A stretch of DNA of 64,000 bases from a virus (IMGVR_UViG_3300031992_000039:1-64000); one strand, 5' to 3'; positions 12,473 through 47,941 are shown, numbered from the stretch's first letter. Numbers and translations: made by a program. The notes: a model not told the origin generated them from the sequence alone.

Positions 12473-12577
12473 TGGAATACTCCAGTAAATTTATTCTAAT
12501 TATAGTATATAGAATTTTGGGGTAAAAGTCAAATTTTAAAAATTAAATAGGATTAAAAATTTAATTCAATTTTAAAA

Positions 12578-12613
12578 AATTTAATTCAGTAGGGAAATTT
12601 AATTCAGTAGGGA
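12578..12613. repeat. Tandem 18-bp direct repeat AATTTAATTCAGTAGGGA x2, plus a partial third copy
   Basis: Read directly in the divergent intergenic region; partial AATTTAATTCA at about 12558. Confidence 0.8.
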
Positions 12614-12788
12614 GATGTGCCAGGGACGCCCATTTCGATCTGTAATAATTCTCATTTTCCGAAAACCCAACCCCGGTTTTCTGTAATAAAACAAAAAAGA
12701 GGATCCCGTTGCATTTTTCTATCCCCCTATAAATATACAATATATTTCTAAAAAAGGGGTAGACAAATCACTTTATAAGGTGTATAAT

Positions 12789-13005
12789 GGGCTTGCCCGA
12801 TGAGGCAAGGGAAAGGGCCTTGATGGGCAGGACGGAAGTTAACCACCACACGCACATTGAAAATTGTATATTGTGTTTCCGTTTTCATGCGATATGTGGA
12901 TATCGACGGCAAGCTGTAAGAGGAACGCTGGATGACGGAATGTAGGTGAGCGTCCCTGCCCAGACTCACCGGCTCAACGACGAATTGTAAGTAGAAAGGA
13001 AGTAT
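12789..13005 (+). ncRNA. Structured 5' leader / candidate cis-regulatory RNA
   Basis: Promoter TAGACA-N17-TATAAT at about 12760-12788; GGGCAGGAC 12825-33 pairs with GTCCCTGCCC 12952-61; GGTGAG 12945-50 pairs with CTCACC 12965-70. Confidence 0.45.
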
Positions 13006-13009
13006 TATA

Positions 13010-14191: not shown

Positions 14192-14459
14192 AGTAAAGAG
14201 GGCATTATGCCCTCTTTTTCTTTTTAGAAATTATATATAATATATTTTCATACCGAGAAAAATATATTATATATTCCCGTACCGAACGAGGATTATATAT
14301 AATATATTATATTATATATTCTTCCTCACGCAGAACTTTCTAAAATATATCATATATTTTCTTCCCGGGACGAGAATATATCATATATTTCCCAAAACCT
14401 GTTGACTTCCCGGTCCGGGTGTGGTAGAATTAGGTATACCAAGAAGAGAGGGTTATACT

Positions 14460-14708
14460 ATGATAGTCTATGTTATTTGTCGTTCTTGGGCCGGCGCGCC
14501 CATTGTCGTCTCTGACCTGCGCGAAGCTGCACGCTTTATTTACGACATTTTCAAGAATTTTGAAGCTACAAGCTTGGAACATATCGAAGCTGAACTCAAG
14601 TTCGACCTTGAAGAATTAGGAGACGATAGTCTCTGGAAGTTTACTTATTTCCCCGAAGAAGGATGTGAGGAATACATCCAGATCTATAAGACTGAAATAG
14701 TTGACTAA
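14460..14708 (+). CDS. Cassette hypothetical protein (MIVYVIC...)
   Basis: Own promoter, GAGG RBS and terminator. Confidence 0.7.
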   Translation: MIVYVICRSWAGAPIVVSDLREAARFIYDIFKNFEATSLEHIEAELKFDLEELGDDSLWKFTYFPEEGCEEYIQIYKTEIVD

Positions 14709-14895
14709 GGGGTACCACCCCTTTTTATTTTATAGAATATATAATATATTATTAGAATACATAATATATTTTTAGAATATATAATATATTCTTGTTTCGA
14801 GCATAGAATATATGATATATTTTCCGGGAAAAAGTTGACTTTTTAAGTCCGGTATGGTATAATTTGGGTACAGTAAAGGAAGGGAGATAATTCCT

Positions 14896-15219
14896 ATGAA
14901 AATCAGTGCCCACCGCATAAATGTGCGTACCATGCGCAAGCTTTCCGAAAATGACGGGCTCACGCTGCGCGACGGCTACCCTGTCACCTACAAGAGCGGC
15001 TACCAAGTCGCAACCGAGAGCGAAGTTACCACTACACCTGAAATGGCTATGGTTATGGCTCGCTGCAAAAAGGACTGCGGCATCTGGTACGCTAATGGCC
15101 TGTATTATGTGGACGCCAGCCGCAGGGTTCCCACAAAAAAGGAAGCTCTGAAGCTCGCACGCGAGCACAAACAGGTTTCAATCCTTAAATGGGCGACGAT
15201 GGAACTTATATATTGTTGA
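14896..15219 (+). CDS. Cassette hypothetical protein (basic)
   Basis: Own promoter, RBS and terminator AGCCGTGG..CCACGGCT-T tract. Confidence 0.75.
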   Translation: MKISAHRINVRTMRKLSENDGLTLRDGYPVTYKSGYQVATESEVTTTPEMAMVMARCKKDCGIWYANGLYYVDASRRVPTKKEALKLAREHKQVSILKWATMELIYC

Positions 15220-15394
15220 AATTTTCTGAGCCGTGGGTTACTCCTCCTGACCCACGGCTTTTTGAATCCGTAAATTATATATAATATATTTTAAGTCCGG
15301 GCGCAGAATATATCATATATAATCGAAAAAAAGGTTGCAATTTCCGTCCGGGCATGGTATAATTAAGCATACCAAATGAAAGGAAGTTAAAACT

Positions 15395-15697
15395 ATGAAC
15401 ACCATTACACTCTCCATCTCTGTTGGCGAAACCACCACTGTTATCACCCCCGCTTTCTCCATTGGCGATACGGTTTACGAAATCACCGACAAGCTCAAGA
15501 TAAGAGCTTGGGAAGTAACCGATTATACCATTGTAAAGGAGTTGGGCCCGGCTGAGTATTCCATAGCTTATAACCTCTCCCATGGTCGTAAAACAACCTT
15601 AATTAATAGTTGGTACGATAACCATTCCCTCTTCTCCGACTACAATCAGGCATTGGCAAAGCTGAATGATCGCAAGGCAGAAAAGGAGTTAAAGTAA
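15395..15697 (+). CDS. Cassette hypothetical protein (SH3/KOW-like beta pattern FSIGDTVY)
   Basis: Own promoter, RBS and terminator. Confidence 0.7.
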   Translation: MNTITLSISVGETTTVITPAFSIGDTVYEITDKLKIRAWEVTDYTIVKELGPAEYSIAYNLSHGRKTTLINSWYDNHSLFSDYNQALAKLNDRKAEKELK

Positions 15698-15917
15698 CCA
15701 ATTAAAGTAGCAAGTAATAATACTTGCTACTTTCTTTTTCTTTAAAATTATATATAATATATTATACTATATTTTCTTAAAAATAAATTGTTCTAATATT
15801 TTAAAAAATATATAATATATTTTGATCTCGGGCACAAAATATATAAAATTTTCCCTTGACAACCAATCTCCCTTGTGATATAATATAGTCACAAAAAAGG
15901 AAAGGGGAATACACCAA

Positions 15918-16118
15918 ATGCTTACCTACGAATACTACATCAACATCCACAACGGAAACGAAAAGGTTACCATCGGTTATAATGGTATCGAAGCTGTCTG
16001 GGACGCATACACCTATATGTGCTCTGCTGTATCTGGAACGGAAGCTCGTATCTGTCTCTGGGACGGCGCCACAGGCGAAGTCCTTGACTATAATTGGGAA
16101 GATGAGGAAGAGGCATAA
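15918..16118 (+). CDS. Cassette hypothetical protein (66 aa, acidic tail)
   Basis: Own promoter and RBS; stop codon in hairpin GAGGC-ATAA-GCCTC. Confidence 0.7.
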   Translation: MLTYEYYINIHNGNEKVTIGYNGIEAVWDAYTYMCSAVSGTEARICLWDGATGEVLDYNWEDEEEA

Positions 16119-16420
16119 GCCTCTTCCTCATTTCCTTCGGAAAATTATATATAATATATTATTTTGAAGCTACGCCGCCCTAAAGGAATATATTATATAT
16201 TTTCAATTTTTAAAAATATATAATATATTCTTTTCTCGGATGCAGAATATATTATATATTTCCCCAAATTCGATCCAAAAAAATAATATATTATATACTA
16301 TATTCTATATTTTCCGAGAATTATATATTCTTTTTCCGAGCAAAATATATTCTAAAAAATGGTTGACAAATCCGGTTCTATGGTGTATAATTAGTTACAG
16401 TAAAGAAAGGAGATACCCCA

Positions 16421-16879
16421 ATGAACACCACCATCTACCACGACCTTATCAAGCGTTACGACCACGCTTCCTACACCAATGAGTATATCTTCGGCTTCGA
16501 GTCCAACGGCTCTATTGTCTTCACCTTCGCAAGCTCCGACCTGCTCCCCTACATCTGCAAGCTTGACAGGGCAAGCCGTGGAGCTGGCTACTCCCTCCGC
16601 TTCAAGCCCGACTACCAGCAGAAGGAGCTTCTGAAGCTTCGTTCCTTGACCGTCCTCTGCTCCGCTGACTTCTTCCGCTCCACCGTCAAGGATTCCAAGT
16701 ACAACGCTGGCGAGATTTTTGAGAAAATGGTCACCGAATGGTTCGGGCAGGAATGGAAAAAAGACCACATTCCCTTTACCAAAGCAGGGGATATCGAGAT
16801 TGACGGAATCGCCTACCAGATAAAGTTCGAAAAGGCTACCTTCACCAACGAAAAGACACTCGCAAAGCTCGGGGCGTAA
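16421..16879 (+). CDS. PD-(D/E)xK-like protein
   Basis: YNAGEIFE...DHIPF..AGDI....YQIK motif; strongly C-ending codons. Confidence 0.65.
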   Translation: MNTTIYHDLIKRYDHASYTNEYIFGFESNGSIVFTFASSDLLPYICKLDRASRGAGYSLRFKPDYQQKELLKLRSLTVLCSADFFRSTVKDSKYNAGEIFEKMVTEWFGQEWKKDHIPFTKAGDIEIDGIAYQIKFEKATFTNEKTLAKLGA

Positions 16880-17010
16880 GCCCCTTTCTTTTTGCATAGA
16901 AAATATATAATATATTTTGAGTCCGGGCAAAGAATATATCTTAAAAATCTATTGACTTCCCACAAATATGTGGTATAATTAATGTATCAAAAGAAAAGGA
17001 GATATCCACC

Positions 17011-17244
17011 ATGCGTTACGAAGTTAGATATACAGATGATTATGGTTATGGAAACCAGCGTTTTACGGAAGGATTTGAAACCCTTGAACAAGCACAAAAA
17101 AGGTTCCAAGAACTCAAATCGGGTGGTATGTTGGCGCCAATAAATCTAACTTTAGTTGACACTGTCGAAGAAGCCAAAGAAAGGATTTTACAACTAAAGC
17201 GTCGGATTTCACAGTTAGAAGATTATATACAAAATACAATATAA
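17011..17244 (+). CDS. Cassette hypothetical protein
   Basis: Own promoter, RBS and terminator. Confidence 0.7.
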   Translation: MRYEVRYTDDYGYGNQRFTEGFETLEQAQKRFQELKSGGMLAPINLTLVDTVEEAKERILQLKRRISQLEDYIQNTI

Positions 17245-17390
17245 GGGCGTAATGCCCCTTTTATTTTTAAAATATATAATATATTTGTGTTCCGGGCGCG
17301 AAATATATTATTTTTCTTCCGAAAAAAGACTTGCATTTTCCCTAAAGTTGTGCTATACTATACTCACAGAAAGAAAGAGAGGAAATAAAA

Positions 17391-17825
17391 ATGACAAAAG
17401 AAATTTGGTTCGATATGGACGGCACAATCGCAGACCTTTACGGCGTTGAAGATTGGCTCTCGATGCTCCGCAACTACGACCCCACCCCCTACAAGGTAGC
17501 CAAGCCCCTTCTCCATATGGCAAGCCTCGCCCGCAAGCTCAACGCACTTCAGCGCAAGGGCTACACAATCGGAGTTGTAAGCTGGGTTTCCAAGGTATCG
17601 ACCCCTGAATATGACGAAGCTGTCGCCGCCGCAAAGATTAATTGGCTTCGCACTCACCTCAAGAGCGTTAAGTTTGACCACATTGACATTCTCCCCTATG
17701 GAACTCCCAAGCAGGACGGTCGCAACGGTATCCTCTTTGATGATAACGAGGAAATTAGAGAAGATTGGGCAGATATAGCCTTTACCGAAAATAACATAAT
17801 GGAAGTTTTAAAGGCACTGGCATAA
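17391..17825 (+). CDS. HAD-family phosphatase (5'-nucleotidase-like)
   Basis: WFDMDGTIAD (motif I), VVSW, conserved K and ILFDD (motif IV). Confidence 0.8.
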   Translation: MTKEIWFDMDGTIADLYGVEDWLSMLRNYDPTPYKVAKPLLHMASLARKLNALQRKGYTIGVVSWVSKVSTPEYDEAVAAAKINWLRTHLKSVKFDHIDILPYGTPKQDGRNGILFDDNEEIREDWADIAFTENNIMEVLKALA

Positions 17826-17952
17826 GTGCCTTTTTCCTTTTATTTTATAATATATTTTGAGGCCGGGCAGATAATATATTATAAAAGTAGTTGACATTCC
17901 TATAATCTTGTGTTATAATTCTTATAGAGAAAAGAAAGAGAGGTAAACAAAA

Positions 17953-18243
17953 ATGTTTGTATCTACTATGCGTAAAGGTTTCCATATGACTTTTGAAAAT
18001 GGTCTTACTATTTCCGTTCAGTGGGGCGCAGGCAATTATTGCCAAAATCATTCCAACTTTGACCACAGTAACCCTTTTGGGCACGATATGGAAAGCAAGG
18101 ACGCCGAAATTGCCATTTTCGACGAACACGATGACTTTGTAGACCCTCGCCTTTTTATTGACTGTTACACAGATGGACAGGTCGCAGGATACCTTTCCGC
18201 AGATAAGGTTGCCGAACTCATCTATAAAGTATCAAGGGCGTAA
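17953..18243 (+). CDS. Cassette hypothetical protein
   Basis: Own promoter, RBS and terminator; FENGLTISVQWG..NYC. Confidence 0.7.
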   Translation: MFVSTMRKGFHMTFENGLTISVQWGAGNYCQNHSNFDHSNPFGHDMESKDAEIAIFDEHDDFVDPRLFIDCYTDGQVAGYLSADKVAELIYKVSRA

Positions 18244-18358
18244 TGCCCTTTTTATATATTTTCGCGCCGGGCAGATTATATATTTTAAAAAAGACTTGAC
18301 TTTCCCATAAACTTCTGTTATAATTTACTTGTAAAGAAAAGGAAAGGAAATCAAAAAA

Positions 18359-18664
18359 ATGGAAAAACCCCACATCACCGATGTTTATATGGATATGAGA
18401 AATACTTGGGGCGCAGAAATCGCCGATGAGATAATGGACCGAATCTTCGATACCCCTTCCGCCGATATAACTTGGCAGGAGTTTATATATAATCGTTGTA
18501 TTGCTTGCGGCGGTGCTTGGGTGACTATGATAGCAACAGGCATCCGTTCTATTGCTCCGAGCGTATGGGACGCACTCCCCGACAATATGGGCGAACCCTT
18601 CCACGCTTTTGCCCTTCTCTGTGACCTTGCTATGATTCTGGGAGTTGAACCTCCCCTCGATTAA
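18359..18664 (+). CDS. Cassette hypothetical protein
   Basis: Own promoter and RBS. Confidence 0.7.
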   Translation: MEKPHITDVYMDMRNTWGAEIADEIMDRIFDTPSADITWQEFIYNRCIACGGAWVTMIATGIRSIAPSVWDALPDNMGEPFHAFALLCDLAMILGVEPPLD

Positions 18665-18831
18665 TACCTCCTTTCTTTGGTGAAGGCGCGGTGAGTGGTG
18701 TCCCGCGCCTTCGACTTTAAAAGTATAATATATTCTTCGTCCGGACAAATAATATATTTTAAAAAACTTATTGACTTCCTAATACTAATCGTGTATAATA
18801 TAGATACAGAAAAGAAAGGGAGATTAAAATT

Positions 18832-19098
18832 ATGAAAGAAAAAATCTATGCGGTCACTGATAGAGATTTGAATGTATCCATTCTTACCCATTCTGAAATC
18901 ACAGACTTGGTTTTGGAAGCAGAAGAAGATACAATAGTTGGTTGGTTAGATGACAATTTTTCCACCGCCGAGCTTTTTACAATGTGCGATGATGATAAGG
19001 TATTAGTCGCAGAAAAGTTCATTGAAGAAGTAGAGGCAGGGCGCATTTACTCTTGGGCTTATCGTGAAATTGAAATCGATACGGAGGTAAGAATGTAA
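18832..19098 (+). CDS. Cassette hypothetical protein (acidic)
   Basis: Own promoter, RBS and terminator. Confidence 0.7.
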   Translation: MKEKIYAVTDRDLNVSILTHSEITDLVLEAEEDTIVGWLDDNFSTAELFTMCDDDKVLVAEKFIEEVEAGRIYSWAYREIEIDTEVRM

Positions 19099-19290
19099 AG
19101 CGCGCAAGCGCTTTCTTTTATCCAATTAATCATATATTCTTCTCCCGGGCGCATTATATACAATAATTTTTTTAAAAAAGGGGGTTGACAAATAAACCCC
19201 CTTATGTTATACTTATATCACGGTGAGGGGAGGAAAACCCCACCAATAAATAGGGCGGTGACCAACACCACTAATAGAAAGGAAACTATT

Positions 19291-19644
19291 ATGACTAACC
19301 GTGAATTCTTCGATACCATCGCCTCCAATGAAACTCTCCCCGATGAGCTTCGCACCTTCGCCACCGAAGCCATTCTCAAGATGGACGCCCGCAACGCCAA
19401 GCGCTCTTCCAAGCCCTCTAAGACAGCCCTTGCCAATGAGCCCATTAAGGCTTCTATCCTTGAGTACCTCGGCACTCATACCTGCGCTCCTGCCGCAGAC
19501 ATCGCCGCCGCCCTTGACATTACCACGCAGAAGGCTTCCGCTCTTTGCCGCCAGCTTGTGGAAAGCGGTCAGGTGAATTCCACCGAGATTAAGATTCCCA
19601 AGAAGGGCAAGGTCAAGGCGTACTCCGTCCATATTGCGGAGTAA
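19291..19644 (+). CDS. Winged helix-turn-helix DNA-binding protein (MTNREF family), paralog of 23946..24305
   Basis: AADIAAALDITTQKASALCRQLVESGQV HTH plus KGKVKAY wing. Confidence 0.7.
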   Translation: MTNREFFDTIASNETLPDELRTFATEAILKMDARNAKRSSKPSKTALANEPIKASILEYLGTHTCAPAADIAAALDITTQKASALCRQLVESGQVNSTEIKIPKKGKVKAYSVHIAE

Positions 19645-19874
19645 ACACCGAGGGGAGAATAATCTCCCCTTTTCTTTACACTTATCTTATATATAATATA
19701 CAATTGGTCCGGGCGCGGAATATACAATTTAGATTTTAAATTTGAAATTTTCAAAAATATATGGTATAATATATTCATAGAAAAAAGAAAATATATTATT
19801 TTCCTTTTAAAAAAAGACTTGACAACCGCAAAAAAGTATAGTAAAATAGGGTATCAAAAGAAAGGAGAAAAAAG

Positions 19875-20222
19875 ATGGCAAGCAAGTTCGACAACATTCG
19901 CCTCAACTTTATGAGTGGTATTACAAAGTGGCTTGAGGACAACGGAAATGAGGTTCTCCAGACGGGGTCGCAGGAAATCGCCCTCCCTATCGTGAGCGAT
20001 GACCACGAGGACGAAGGGTGGCTTGTAATAACCTTTAAGATTCCGAAGGGTTCCCGTGATGGTGATGTTTACGATGGTTACTCTATGGCGGAAGATTACA
20101 AGATGAAGCAGGCGGAAAAGGCGGAGAAGAAGCGGGTCGCCGCAGAAAAGAAGGCGGCAAAGATTGCAAAGGATAAAAAGATGCGGGAAGAAAAGGCAAG
20201 GTTAAAAGCGGAAAGGGGTTAA
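19875..20222 (+). CDS. Hypothetical protein with Lys/Ala/Glu-rich basic C-terminal helix
   Basis: Own promoter, RBS and terminator. Confidence 0.7.
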   Translation: MASKFDNIRLNFMSGITKWLEDNGNEVLQTGSQEIALPIVSDDHEDEGWLVITFKIPKGSRDGDVYDGYSMAEDYKMKQAEKAEKKRVAAEKKAAKIAKDKKMREEKARLKAERG

Positions 20223-20328
20223 ACCCCTTTCTTTTCAACTCTTTTATATATAATATATTGCGCGGCCGGGCGCAGAATATATTATTCTAAGGGATTGACT
20301 TCTGACTTGAAAAGTGGTATTATAACAA

Positions 20329-20462
20329 TGCGGGGAGGAACACCGAATAAGGATAGTCAACAGTAGGTTTCCTTGAAATGTGAATACCGAGTGACCCTGC
20401 GGCGTAACTGCCAAGACCCAACTCTGTAATGGATAGTAAACTCATAGGGTTCGCGCCCCGCA
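20329..20462 (+). ncRNA. Candidate structured RNA of about 134 nt in a cassette leader
   Basis: Begins just after a promoter; closing stem TGCGGGG/CCCCGCA; internal AAGGA/TCCTT and GACCCTG/TAGGGTT stems. Confidence 0.5.
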
Positions 20463-20487
20463 ATTAAAAAGAAAGGAAAATAAAATT

Positions 20488-20679
20488 ATGACAACCAGCG
20501 AACGACTTCATTATGAGGGTAAGGCACTCCATTATACTAATCTCTTGCACGATGAAATTAAGGATTTGCCTTGGGATGAGCAGAGATATTTTATTAATGA
20601 ATTTTTCTACTTCTTATCCGAAGAACTCCGCAACACTTTTATAGAAGAAGAAAACGAAAAAAATAAAAGTGATGTATAA
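20488..20679 (+). CDS. Cassette hypothetical protein
   Basis: AAAGGA RBS and terminator. Confidence 0.65.
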   Translation: MTTSERLHYEGKALHYTNLLHDEIKDLPWDEQRYFINEFFYFLSEELRNTFIEEENEKNKSDV

Positions 20680-20823
20680 GGCGCGCAAGCGTCTTTTTCT
20701 TTTATAAAAAACAATTATATATTCTGATCCCGGCCGCAAAATATACAATAATTTTTCCCGAAAAGGTCTTGCAATCTGTCCCAACTTGTGGTATAATTCT
20801 ACTTGTAGAAAGGAGATAAGAAA

Positions 20824-21522
20824 ATGAACCTTGTGATAGTTGACACCGAAACCGCAAATGGTCTTGATTGTCCGTTGCCTTATGACCTCGGATATCGGAT
20901 TATAAACGCCGAGACCTTTGAAACCCTCGTAGAACGCTCGTTCGTAATCGCAGAAATTTTCCTTGATGACGAGCTGATGGCTTCCGCCTACTACGCCAAA
21001 AAGATACCGCAGTATTGGCAGGACATAAAAGACGGAAAGCGCAAACTGGTAAAGGCTTGTACCGCCCGTCGTATTCTCTGGAATGACCTCAAAACCTACA
21101 ATGTGAAAGAGGTCGGGGCATACAACATGGGCTTCGACAAAAGAGCGGTCAAAAATGATATACGATTTATAACCGCTTCTGCCCTTCGTTGGTTCTTCCC
21201 CTACCATATGGAATACTTCTGTATTTGGAACATGGCTTGCACTTCAATCTTGCAGACCGCCGAATATATAGAGTTTTGTTTGGAGAATGGGCTTATAAGT
21301 CCCAAAGGAAATATCCTTACAAGTGCCGAAGCCGTTTATAAGTATCTCACGGGCAACACCGATTTTTCAGAATCGCATACAGGACTTGAAGATGTAGCGA
21401 TTGAAACGGAAATATTCCGAGCGGTAATAGAATCGGGTATGGACTATGAAAAAGAGGTAAAGGGCGCGCCGTGGACAAAAGTAAAAAAGTTTTACAAGAT
21501 GTATTTGGAGATGGGCGAGTGA
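20824..21522 (+). CDS. DEDDh 3'-5' exonuclease
   Basis: VDTET (ExoI), AYNMGFD (ExoII) and HTGLED (ExoIII). Confidence 0.85.
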   Translation: MNLVIVDTETANGLDCPLPYDLGYRIINAETFETLVERSFVIAEIFLDDELMASAYYAKKIPQYWQDIKDGKRKLVKACTARRILWNDLKTYNVKEVGAYNMGFDKRAVKNDIRFITASALRWFFPYHMEYFCIWNMACTSILQTAEYIEFCLENGLISPKGNILTSAEAVYKYLTGNTDFSESHTGLEDVAIETEIFRAVIESGMDYEKEVKGAPWTKVKKFYKMYLEMGE

Positions 21523-21768
21523 TCGCCCTTTCTTTTTTTGTGGGATTATATATTGTGTGACCGGGCGCATTATATATTTTAGAAAAGACTTGATTTTCCT
21601 ATAATTTTATGTTATACTTATATCGTCAAGAGAGATGGAGAGCGAGCACTACGGTTCTTGCCCGAACCACGGACGCGTGGGGTGCAAAATAAAAAATAAA
21701 AAAAGTTTGCAAAATCTCTTGACAAAGTGCAAAATTATGGTATAATAAAAGAAAAGGAGACAGAAAAT

Positions 21769-21972
21769 ATGATTAAGTTCAAGGATTTTGTAGAAACATT
21801 TATGACTATCGCAATAAACGCAACAAATAGAAGTAGAATAGCCACAGAAGAAGAAATAGATAATTATATTGAGGTTGACGCCGAAGAGCGCCTTGTCTAT
21901 CTCTATAATGCCAATAGCGACCAAACCACTTTCTACTTTGACGCAAATGATAATCTTTGTTGGTGGGAGTAA
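21769..21972 (+). CDS. Cassette hypothetical protein (MIKFKDF...)
   Basis: AAGGAG RBS. Confidence 0.65.
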   Translation: MIKFKDFVETFMTIAINATNRSRIATEEEIDNYIEVDAEERLVYLYNANSDQTTFYFDANDNLCWWE

Positions 21973-21984
21973 AGGAGAAAGAAA

Positions 21985-22191
21985 ATGAAAGGAAAGATGA
22001 CATTTCAACTTATAACCGAAGGAGAAGTCGAATTTGACATCCTTGACGAATATGTCGATAACTTTGAAGACCTTAAAGATTTTATTTGGAGTAACTATAT
22101 TGATACTGGAAAATATAAACTGCTAACCGAAACTCTTGATGACAAGGGAACAATTATTACTACTCAAGACGGTGAAGTTCATTATTTTTAA
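21985..22191 (+). CDS. Small acidic hypothetical protein
   Basis: AAAGGAG RBS and terminator. Confidence 0.65.
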   Translation: MKGKMTFQLITEGEVEFDILDEYVDNFEDLKDFIWSNYIDTGKYKLLTETLDDKGTIITTQDGEVHYF

Positions 22192-22324
22192 GGCGCGGAA
22201 GCGTCTTTTTTATTGTAAGATATAATATATTCTATATCCGGGCGCGCAATATATAAAAATAGATGTTGACTTTCCTATAAATTTATGGTATAATTCTCGT
22301 AGAAAAAGAAAAGGAGATAAAAAA

Positions 22325-22501
22325 ATGAATTTAAAGTACGATGAAAGAAATACGGTTTGGCTTATTATCGAAGACACGATTGAAGAAATTTATAAATATG
22401 AACCAAATTTAGATACCATTAATATAGACAAAATCATAGATGATTTAGAACATATACAGAGTTGTATAGATAAAGGTGTTTACAATGAGGAGGAAAATTA
22501 A
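22325..22501 (+). CDS. Small acidic hypothetical protein (58 aa, MNLKYDERN...)
   Basis: Own promoter and AAAGGAG RBS; not in the ORF track. Confidence 0.6.
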   Translation: MNLKYDERNTVWLIIEDTIEEIYKYEPNLDTINIDKIIDDLEHIQSCIDKGVYNEEEN

Positions 22502-22503
22502 AA

Positions 22504-22695
22504 ATGAAAACAATTTATTTGGTAGAGTATGGTTCTAATTTCAGGCCAGAGGATTGGGAAATTATTTGTGCTTTTTCAATGAAAGAAGCGGCGGAAGCGT
22601 TCAAAAAATCCAAAGGTGAAATATCTTCCAGTCTATATCATATTACTCCCGTGAAGTTAGACCCTATGATAAAAGGAGATAAAAATGATGGTTAA
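22504..22695 (+). CDS. Small hypothetical protein
   Basis: GAGGAGG RBS and terminator. Confidence 0.65.
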   Translation: MKTIYLVEYGSNFRPEDWEIICAFSMKEAAEAFKKSKGEISSSLYHITPVKLDPMIKGDKNDG

Positions 22696-22827
22696 GGGGT
22701 TATCCCCTTTTCTATTAATAATATATAATATATTTAATGGCCGGCGCAAGAATATACGATTTAAAAGTATTGACTTCCCATAACTCTTATGGTATAATAA
22801 GTGCATCAAAAGAAAGGAAAATAAAAA

Positions 22828-23031
22828 ATGAACGACTATTTTGAAACCCCTATTTGTCCCAACTGCGGTCATACTATTGTAGAAGATAAGACCACAGTTG
22901 AATATTATAATGTTGATAGCATTGATTTCATCATATCGGGCACTTGCCCCAACTGTGGGAAAAGTTATCATTGGACATACCATTATGCGCGTGATTATAA
23001 TTGTGATTTAGAAGAAGATATGGAGGATTAA
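22828..23031 (+). CDS. Small Zn-ribbon protein
   Basis: CPNCG twice. Confidence 0.7.
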   Translation: MNDYFETPICPNCGHTIVEDKTTVEYYNVDSIDFIISGTCPNCGKSYHWTYHYARDYNCDLEEDMED

Positions 23032-23033
23032 AA

Positions 23034-23240
23034 ATGAAAGTTGTAGCACATTTCGACCAGACAATTGAAATCGAAGTACCCGACAAGTTTTCTCCCATTG
23101 TTTCCAATCCTGATTGGTGGGAGTCCCGTGACGAAAGTGTCGACAAACTTGCAACCGAATTGTGGAATTATGTGTGCAATCGAGTAAACAAAGTCGATTG
23201 TGTAGATAATGAAAACGGCGAAACAATCTTGGAGGCATAA
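23034..23240 (+). CDS. Small hypothetical protein
   Basis: GGAGG RBS; stop codon in hairpin GGAGGC-ATAAT-GCCTCC. Confidence 0.65.
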   Translation: MKVVAHFDQTIEIEVPDKFSPIVSNPDWWESRDESVDKLATELWNYVCNRVNKVDCVDNENGETILEA

Positions 23241-23290
23241 TGCCTCCTTTTAATTCTAAATAATATATTTCTCGCCGGGGCGACTGTATA

Positions 23291-23524
23291 TCATCCTACT
23301 TCATGTCTTTTGTAAGGAGTAAATTCATCGTCCCACGGACGGAATAAGTCGATCGCGGTAACAAAAGTAAGTGTTTTAGAAGAGAACTGGGTGCAAATGG
23401 ATTCAAAACAAGTTTCAATTATACCTTCATCTATTGTACAGCCATCAAACCTTGCTATCGTAATTGATTCTTCTCCTACCTCATAGACAATTGCGTATTC
23501 ATAAATCTCACGGTCAATCTTCAT
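23291..23524 (-). CDS. Inverted cassette, hypothetical protein
   Basis: Own minus-strand promoter (TTGATT..TATAAT at about 23556-23585) and RBS; flanked by two plus-orientation copies of the repeat element. Confidence 0.65.
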   Translation of the reverse strand: MKIDREIYEYAIVYEVGEESITIARFDGCTIDEGIIETCFESICTQFSSKTLTFVTAIDLFRPWDDEFTPYKRHEVG

Positions 23525-23691
23525 TTTGTTTTCTCCTCTCTTTCTCTTATGTACTAATTATACCACTCTTTCTTAAAAAATCAAGCACTTAAAATCAATA
23601 TATTCCTTCTCCGGGCACACAGTATATTATATATTCTCCCACAACTCGTAATACTCCCTATCTACCCCATTCTGTCATAGTTGCGTGCACC

Positions 23692-23846
23692 GTCAAATTT
23701 TACAAGTATATAGCAGCTGCAAAAAGCTGGGAAGCTGTGAATGCGCCCGTGTCAAATTTTTCATATAGCTGGGAAGCTGCGCCGGCTGCAAATTTTGTGG
23801 AGCTGGGAAATTCGCGCAGCTGTCAAATTTTCATCGCAGCTGGGGC
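23692..23846. repeat. Four imperfect units CAAATTTT...AGCTG(GGAA)
   Basis: GTCAAATTTT at 23692, 23751 and 23822, GCAAATTTT at 23788; AGCTGGG at 23725, 23767, 23801 and 23838. Confidence 0.75.
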
Positions 23847-23945
23847 CTTATATTTCCAACTATTATAAATTGTAATAGCTCGCATAAAAAGAAAAGCGGA
23901 GAGAAATTCTCCCCGCCTTCTTATCGGACTTTCTATCCCGAATGG

Positions 23946-47847: not shown

Positions 47848-47941
47848 TGGCGGAAGTGGCAGGGTTCGAACCTGCAAAGTGGTGACGTCAAACCACAGGG
47901 ATTTAGAATCCCCCGCCTTTAACCTATTTGGCTACACTTCC
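47848..47941 (-). tRNA. Amber suppressor tRNA (CUA) with a Ser-like body
   Basis: GGGGA-TTCTAAA-TCCCT anticodon arm, long variable arm, G73, GGAAGTG/CACTTCC acceptor and CCA. Confidence 0.88.

Follow-up and report, generated by a model that had tools for sequence, protein, structure and literature searches.

The stretch of DNA considered here, called the window below, comprises the first 64,000 nucleotides (64 kb) of a 111,327-bp phage record in the IMG/VR database (IMGVR_UViG_3300031992_000039:1-64000); the terminal repeat of this record is 127 bp long and looks like an assembly overlap. Some 24 small plus-strand genes, the majority without a PHROG or Pfam family, form an island between 12.5 and 23.6 kb; they are arranged as single genes or coupled pairs such that nearly each unit possesses its own promoter and terminator. 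The promoters follow a near-consensus TTGAC-N17-(TG)nTATAAT pattern and are of the sigma-A type with an extended -10, and the terminators consist of a GC hairpin followed by a T-run; a consensus scan detected 60 promoter-like sites as against 33 expected from shuffles, and 28 terminator-like sites as against 11. Promoters and Shine-Dalgarno sites both look Firmicute-like. Most linkers of the island also carry a repeated element, with the copy consensus aATATaATATATT-N6-CCGGGC-gcAg-AATATAt, which forms the subject of this analysis. A GC hairpin with its T-run precedes most copies, upstream of the promoter and separate from it, and a near-consensus promoter of the host sigma-70 type is found downstream of 17 copies.

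The element was confirmed; it is confined strictly to one region and is under strong constraint. An original prediction, made from the sequence, had described about 20 copies at 14.2-23.6 kb, and this count is borne out: a search with the predicted pattern at up to 3 mismatches provided 37 matches, which correspond to 20 sites once both-strand matches are merged, as against an expectation of 0 by chance (100 dinucleotide-preserving shuffles). The rigid internal spacing holds as well, the 20 aligned copies showing no indel over 31 nt, with the core starting at +14 and the second box at +24. So does the predicted confinement to this region: when the whole genome was scanned with a relaxed pattern, matches were obtained only at 14,352-23,627, and all 22 occurrences of ATAATATATT also lie inside the element region.

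On careful examination of the copies, each of the two AT boxes, WATATATT and WATATAY, was found to be the inner half of a perfect 15-bp palindrome, AATATAT-N-ATATATT. With up to 1 mismatch allowed, about 26 such palindromes occur in the island, including one at 12732, and none elsewhere in the genome. Their centre-to-centre spacing recurs at 31 bp, with the CC/GG of the core exactly midway. Two palindromes 31 bp apart around CC/GGGC give the element near dyad symmetry over about 46 bp, broken only where the core is extended by GC, and most sites match on both strands with the minus-strand match offset by 1. Three long linkers (14232-14320, 14736-14790 and 16146-16352) hold extra solitary palindromes and decayed copies. 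The terminator hairpins in turn recur as sequence families, GGGCGTAATGCCC and GCGCGCAAGCGY, so that whole linkers, beyond the dyad alone, share a history. The positions of all copies and associated features are listed in Table 1.

Table 1. Element copies and associated features, in coordinates of the window unless the genome is named.
Feature	Position	Strand	Details
Single 15-bp palindrome AATATACAATATATT, no core	12732-12746	.	13 nt upstream of the island's first plus-strand promoter, -35 at 12760
Four solitary 15-bp palindromes	14232-14320	.	Starts 14232, 14261, 14294, 14306; after terminator 14195-14217
Element copy	14344-14389	+	Two full palindromes; core CCGGGA 14365; -35 14402; long class
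Three palindromes at 20-bp spacing, then element copy	14736-14821	+	Degenerate core TCGAGC 14797; full second palindrome; -35 14835
Element copy	15276-15321	+	Core CCGGGC 15297; full second palindrome; -35 15335; long class
Element copy	15807-15844	+	Core TCGGGC 15828; -35 15856; short class
Long linker	16146-16352	+	About 7 palindromes; two decayed copies (box starts 16222, 16322; cores TCGGAT, CCGAGC); -35 16363
Element copy	16902-16939	+	Core 16923; -35 16952; short class
Element copy	17271-17308	+	Core 17292; -35 17331; long class
Element copy	17842-17879	+	Core 17863; -35 17891; short class
Element copy	18246-18283	+	Core 18267; -35 18296; short class; terminator cuts first palindrome short
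Element copy	18720-18757	+	Core CCGGAC 18741; -35 18771; short class
Element copy upstream of winged-helix gene	19124-19161	+	Core 19145; -35 19185; long class; both palindromes degenerate
Element copy	19688-19725	+	Core 19709; then tandem promoters, -35 at 19742 and 19819
Element copy	20245-20282	+	Core 20266; -35 20295; short class
Element copy upstream of conserved exonuclease-like gene	20709-20746	+	Core CCGGCC 20730; -35 20769; long class
Element copy	21540-21577	+	Core 21561; -35 21590; short class
Element copy	22217-22254	+	Core 22238; -35 22266; short class
Element copy	22720-22757	+	Core CCGGCG 22741; -35 22770; short class
Orphan, weaker element copy (23262)	23255-23292	+	After terminator 23231-23247; promoter on neither side
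Last element copy (23597)	23590-23635	.	Core 23611; dyad centre 28 nt from -35 (23584) of minus-strand promoter, gene 23524-23291
Terminator hairpin families	17243-17260, 18234-18250; and 19097-19114, 20678-20695, 22190-22207
Small winged-helix protein, 117 aa, FaeA/PapI/MarR-like	19291-19644	+	Candidate binder only
Winged-helix paralogue, 36% identity	23955-24305	-	Driven by second promoter class; candidate binder only
Second-class promoters	Window 24430, 24960, 33674, 38636, 47200	-
Second-class promoters	Genome 68526, 74648	+

Conservation and promoter distance

Conservation was measured as the mean pairwise identity among 15 copies. Within the element this is 0.77 for the first palindrome, 0.83 for the core and 0.90 for half of the second palindrome, and in the promoter 0.79 for the -35 hexamer and 0.76 for the -10 region, as against 0.31-0.43 for the spacers and the terminator region and a background of 0.26. 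Conserved blocks held at fixed spacing between drifting spacers indicate selection on specific blocks and hence sequence-specific recognition; neither recent duplication nor selection for contiguous homology explains such a pattern.

The start of the core is 27-30 nt from the -35 hexamer in 10 copies and 37-40 nt in 6, which matches the bimodal distance (18-20 or 27-30) originally measured from the second box; counted from the dyad centre, the two classes in this phage are 25-28 and 35-38 nt. The long class has some 8-10 bp more between the second box and the -35, and this extra stretch is an intact second palindrome half in the copies at 14375, 14807 and 15307 and a degenerate one in those at 17302, 19155 and 20740. 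Of the proposed helical phasing, therefore, the 9-10-bp step stands; the step, however, goes together with the second palindrome half, and phasing in the wider clade is weak, as detailed below. The element had also been described as polar, and this part finds no functional support, since the quasi-palindromic site serves a promoter of opposite orientation at 23597. The distance between that copy and the minus-strand promoter falls in the same class as that of plus-strand promoters (25-28 nt), and an inverted promoter served at the same distance is better explained by a symmetric two-way site than by a polar one.

When this phage was considered along with the loci of 7 relatives, the distance from dyad centre to -35 was found to cluster at 24-28, 35-38, 43-46, 52-57 and 74-79 nt, the best period being 9.75-10 bp (R 0.63; 0/5000 draws from a uniform null, p < 0.001). 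If the start site is standard, these clusters would correspond to centres at about -62, -72, -82 and so on. As paralogous linkers inflate this R, the analysis was repeated on 359 unique clade spacers, for which the best period is 10.25-10.5 bp with R 0.17 (p 0.0003 against a jitter null); after collapse of similar spacers, R is 0.15 (p 0.011).

The core in related phages

The exact element has 0 matches in IMG/VR and 4 in the JGI metagenomes, the latter being singletons without palindromes that are read as chance. A blastn search of the phage collection found nothing, and no close relative is present in the collections searched. The 232-aa exonuclease-like protein of the island (20824-21522) nevertheless recovers 20 loci at 49-59% identity, all of which carry dense plus-strand promoter arrays; its nearest cultured homologues, at about 40% identity, reside in Enterococcus phages of 134-142 kb. 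A homologue in any of these 20 loci exists for 7 of the 24 island genes, and four genes are common to several relatives, namely those for a 152-aa protein, a nucleotidase, a winged helix-turn-helix (wHTH) protein and the exonuclease.

The closest loci (L009, L010 and L011) show no AT palindrome and contain exact GCCCGGGC between terminator hairpin and promoter, flanked by other palindromes: TGGAAA-N3-TTTCCA, AATTGTC-N-GACAATT, AGTTAGY-N4-RCTAACT and GTTAA...TTAAC. In the relatives' whole genomes (G001-G003, 134-181 kb), exact GCCCGGGC occurs 10, 18 and 9 times, all inside the early array. The core lies upstream of the orthologous exonuclease gene in 4/4 phages (this one and the three closest). 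The array of the present phage has no exact GCCCGGGC; nCCGGGC(G) occupies the homologous place, including that upstream of the exonuclease gene. Several hairpins preceding GCCCGGGC cores in L010 (near 6770, 9250, 9765 and 11530) read CGAAC-N4-GTTCG, a side observation; this matches the Gram-positive LexA (Cheo) box, and it could be a coincidence arising from a shared terminator stem.

A scan with the pattern of core plus promoter retrieved at least 120 loci, which points to a large clade. Across 359 clade sites the conserved part is cGCCCGGGCg only. Two loci (L098 and L122) have symmetric arms of their own, of a TGGTAA/TGGAAA type (TGGTAAnTTnTGGAAA...), and their dyad of about 46 bp is much like that formed by the AT arms here. 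The 15-bp AT palindrome does not occur beyond chance in 148 loci of clade relatives, and a cluster of palindromes in L116 was discarded as an AT microsatellite at a contig end.

As judged from these comparisons, the element is a derived local form of a clade-wide, GCCCGGGC-centred site of many large rumen and gut phages, in which the 8-bp core is half decayed (nCCGGGCG) and lineage-specific AT arms are newly fixed on nearly all linkers. A half-decayed core together with new arms conserved like the promoter hexamers suggests that recognition resides to a large extent in the arms, whose specificity can change. In the literature on phage GCCCGGGC and on the promoter-early stem-loop (PeSL), we found no description of a GCCCGGGC site or of its AT-armed form.

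Possible roles of the element

We consider, at about an even chance, that the element is an operator for a putative dimeric or tetrameric regulator of immediate-early promoters. In the plus-strand host-takeover block, most early promoters would have such an operator, about 46 bp long. Palindrome centres 31 bp apart are separated by three helical turns, so that both would face the same side of the DNA, flanking the central CC/GGGC on the dyad axis; a protein bound there, with its centre near -62 or -72, would act on the host RNA polymerase at the adjacent promoter. As near-consensus promoters need no activator, coordinated shut-off or tuning of immediate-early transcription is favoured, and with phi29 p4 as the model, repression or tuning would be the most likely mode. 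The 20 direct repeats of the same blocks would also offer short homology for loss, duplication or exchange of cassettes, and thus may serve as exchange seams like the PeSLs of T4. The original proposal of a dedicated protein-binding site remains the best fit to the block-wise conservation, the confinement, the dyad symmetry and the rough phase, with binding itself predicted from the sequence.

Among known systems, PeSL cassettes of T4-type phages are a close parallel in organization (Arbiol et al. 2010, PMC2839356; Comeau et al. 2014, PMC4122927). In both, repeated terminator/promoter linkers punctuate a hyperplastic early region, mostly upstream of ORFans, with strong host-sigma promoters and AT-rich upstream DNA; PeSL linkers are exchange points between otherwise unrelated genes, and those here may be so as well. 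A PeSL, however, is a promoter with a stem-loop that often overlaps it and lacks a separate dyad, whereas in this phage a classical terminator and the promoter are separated by a symmetric, GC-cored site of about 46 bp whose internal spacing is fixed; moreover, PeSL phages are T4-type and the promoters here look Firmicute-like. Imperfect palindromes at every cassette boundary are also reminiscent of integron attC sites, but this phage has no integrase, its cassettes have their own promoters and terminators, and single-strand folding of the element is weak.

The sites of phi29 p4 are AT-rich inverted repeats about 15 bp apart, a geometry similar to that of the element. Bound upstream of a strong early promoter, the p4 dimer makes contact with the C-terminal domain of the alpha subunit (alpha-CTD) of RNA polymerase and represses by blocking promoter clearance (PMC6524683). 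Unlike phi29, this phage has no p4 homologue (no PF05464 match in the genome at E <= 1), about 20 sites instead of a few, and a central GC core that has no counterpart in the p4 sites. Class I sites of the activator CRP/CAP are centred near -61.5, -71.5, -82.5 and -92.5. A general description of such sites is available (PMC6524683), and they resemble the element in being dyad-symmetric and, if the start site is standard, in its placement near -62 or -72, with steps of about 10 bp further upstream in the relatives. The element, however, has an unrelated sequence and double the length, its promoters already approach the consensus and the clade-wide phasing is weak. Phage SPO1 is not known to possess a punctuating dyad. 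Like the island, its early region, as cited in PMC6873191, belongs to a large phage of Firmicute type and combines many small early genes with terminators and strong promoters of the host type; an analogy to SPO1-like host takeover would be reasonable for the gene block.

Several points weigh against the operator. Helical phasing across the clade is detectable but modest (R 0.15-0.17), and the -62 and -72 centres are themselves estimated from the promoter hexamers. For the copies at 23262 and 16222, the usual distance does not lead to a promoter; the former, originally noted to have none after it, has none on either side. The arrays of relatives end with similar cores that lack a promoter, which would suit the role of a boundary or joint better than that of a promoter site. 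The promoter-side box overlaps the AT-rich position of UP elements, and part of its conservation could come from that. As for the regulator, the winged-helix paralogues are no more than reasonable candidates.

The original prediction had also proposed a recombination boundary, and this idea has support in the wider clade from a spike of homology ends at the equivalent GCCCGGGC core. Blast matches between clade loci at 88% identity or more provided 278 internal homology ends, of which 23 lie within 10 bp of a core as against 3.7 expected (maximum 12 in 2000 randomisations), in a sharp spike from -5 to +9, and an 843-bp unit common to L057, L134 and L152 starts and ends exactly at two cores. As the main rival of the operator, it is conceivable, though we regard it as somewhat unlikely, that the element is primarily a recombination seam for the gain, loss, swapping or flipping of cassettes, working by short homology like the PeSLs (PMC2839356, PMC4122927) or through an enzyme that cuts or pairs the core, and that any effect on transcription is secondary. 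Such a seam would also agree with the promoter-less copies at array ends and at 23262, with the recurring families of terminator hairpins, and with a cassette content made up mostly of ORFans in which the shared genes are partly reordered among relatives. More than 80% of the homology ends, however, are away from cores, and homology-driven exchange would favour contiguous identity rather than conserved blocks separated by free spacers of fixed length. No word longer than the core is common to all cassettes, so that even a mere binding site would be expected to collect breakpoints. The evidence, moreover, derives from clade loci, the collections searched holding no close relative of this phage, and the whole genome gave no match to PF00589 (tyrosine recombinase, IntI) or PF00239, leaving it without a recognisable serine or tyrosine recombinase.

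It is also improbable that there is no dedicated binder at all, with the AT boxes acting as UP elements or bendable DNA and the core and first box being passengers of a duplicated linker module. The promoter-side box at about -48 to -57 does occupy the place of distal UP subsites, A-tracts are found at -38 to -46, and several promoters share spacer motifs such as TTCCYATAA, suggesting common linker descent. The first palindrome and core, however, lie at -60 to -85, beyond UP elements, and are conserved like the hexamers, and spacers near background cannot be reconciled with simple inheritance of conserved blocks. UP function has no need of palindromic symmetry, and the exact 8-bp core is retained in phages with only about 50-60% identity between the proteins they share. 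It is very improbable that a phage-specific factor, either an alternative sigma or a phage RNA polymerase, uses the element as its promoter or entry site, or that the element acts as an attC-type or N4-type single-strand hairpin. The first palindrome holds TATAAT when its centre base is A, and the element stands upstream of each gene in one orientation; there is, however, no -35-like partner at a fitting distance, for which reason an ordinary sigma-70 promoter inside the element was rejected. No sigma-70 region 2 was found in the genome, in a search that could miss divergent phage sigma factors, and no T7-type RNA polymerase in a search made without a positive control. Folded as single strands, six copies gave weak structures that do not agree with one another (-1.6 to -9.2 kcal/mol, z +0.9 to -2.3), so a stable hairpin or cruciform was likewise rejected, and the attC variant would in addition call for an integrase that the genome lacks.

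A bolder view, which we hold to be doubtful, joins the operator and the joint: the GCCCGGGC-centred dyad would be the site of a putative protein family, belonging to a large clade of rumen and gut phages, that both tunes dozens of immediate-early promoters by helix-face contact with the host RNA polymerase and makes or guides the exact joints of cassette exchange. The result would be a phage counterpart of the integron without a known recombinase, whose arms evolve lineage specificity while the core persists.

Neighbouring features and wider meaning

The wHTH proteins named in the original prediction (19291 and 24305) are real paralogues (Table 1); such a protein has one paralogue in this phage and one to three in relatives. 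CodY boxes and Fur/PerR 7-1-7 boxes were considered for the identity of the palindrome and dropped because the half-sites do not match.

A second class of promoters, TTGATTTTT-N-TGnTATAAT followed by a conserved initially transcribed ATTTATAGARAGTGAG, is present both in this phage (Table 1) and in the relatives L009, L010 and L022; the dyad element is absent at these promoters elsewhere in the genome. Tandem promoters, in which a TATACT-type promoter is followed by a second within about 100 nt, are seen at 21590-21720 in the window and, in similar form, in L010 (near 1291, 3856 and 9939) and L022 (near 7758 and 12461). Their short leader opens with a conserved GTCAAGRGRAG in this phage and its relatives, and is possibly a small RNA or a regulatory leader. 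In the first three cassette promoters (14402-14430, 14835-14863 and 15335-15363), a GTCCGG(G/T) word that echoes the element core is located in the -35/-10 spacer just before the extended -10.

Long 5' leaders of about 220, 80 and 160 nt precede three cassette genes (12790-13009, 19214-19290 and 20324-20487). None of the three matches Rfam, the segment 20324-20480 folds no better than shuffles (z -1.26), and an Rfam search over 12.4-24.4 kb at two thresholds returned nothing credible. The divergent promoter region that opens the plus-strand island has 2-3 direct repeats of AATTTAATTCAGTAGGGA at 12560-12625. At 23690-23850, immediately after the last element and ahead of the terminator that belongs to the minus-strand wHTH gene, GTCAAATTTT occurs four times, alternating with GCTGGGAAGCTG-like words at a spacing of about 40 nt, which looks like an iteron-type pattern. 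Outside the island, in a cluster of ten tRNA genes, ARAGORN reports a tRNA with the anticodon CTA (labelled tRNA-Pyl) at 47848-47941 on the minus strand; such a tRNA would act as an amber suppressor, and hints at TAG recoding in part of the genome.

Large uncultured phages of the rumen and gut carry 10-20 kb of tiny early-gene arrays, and a conserved symmetric site at most linkers provides a concrete handle on them, as bait for the regulator. With its help, sequence alone could serve for the prediction of immediate-early regulons, and the site could show where exchangeable units begin and end. If binding together with phased contact to RNA polymerase is true, the element would represent a new switch of early transcription in phages of anaerobic Firmicutes; if the core is instead a joint made by an enzyme, it would represent a new mechanism of cassette exchange.

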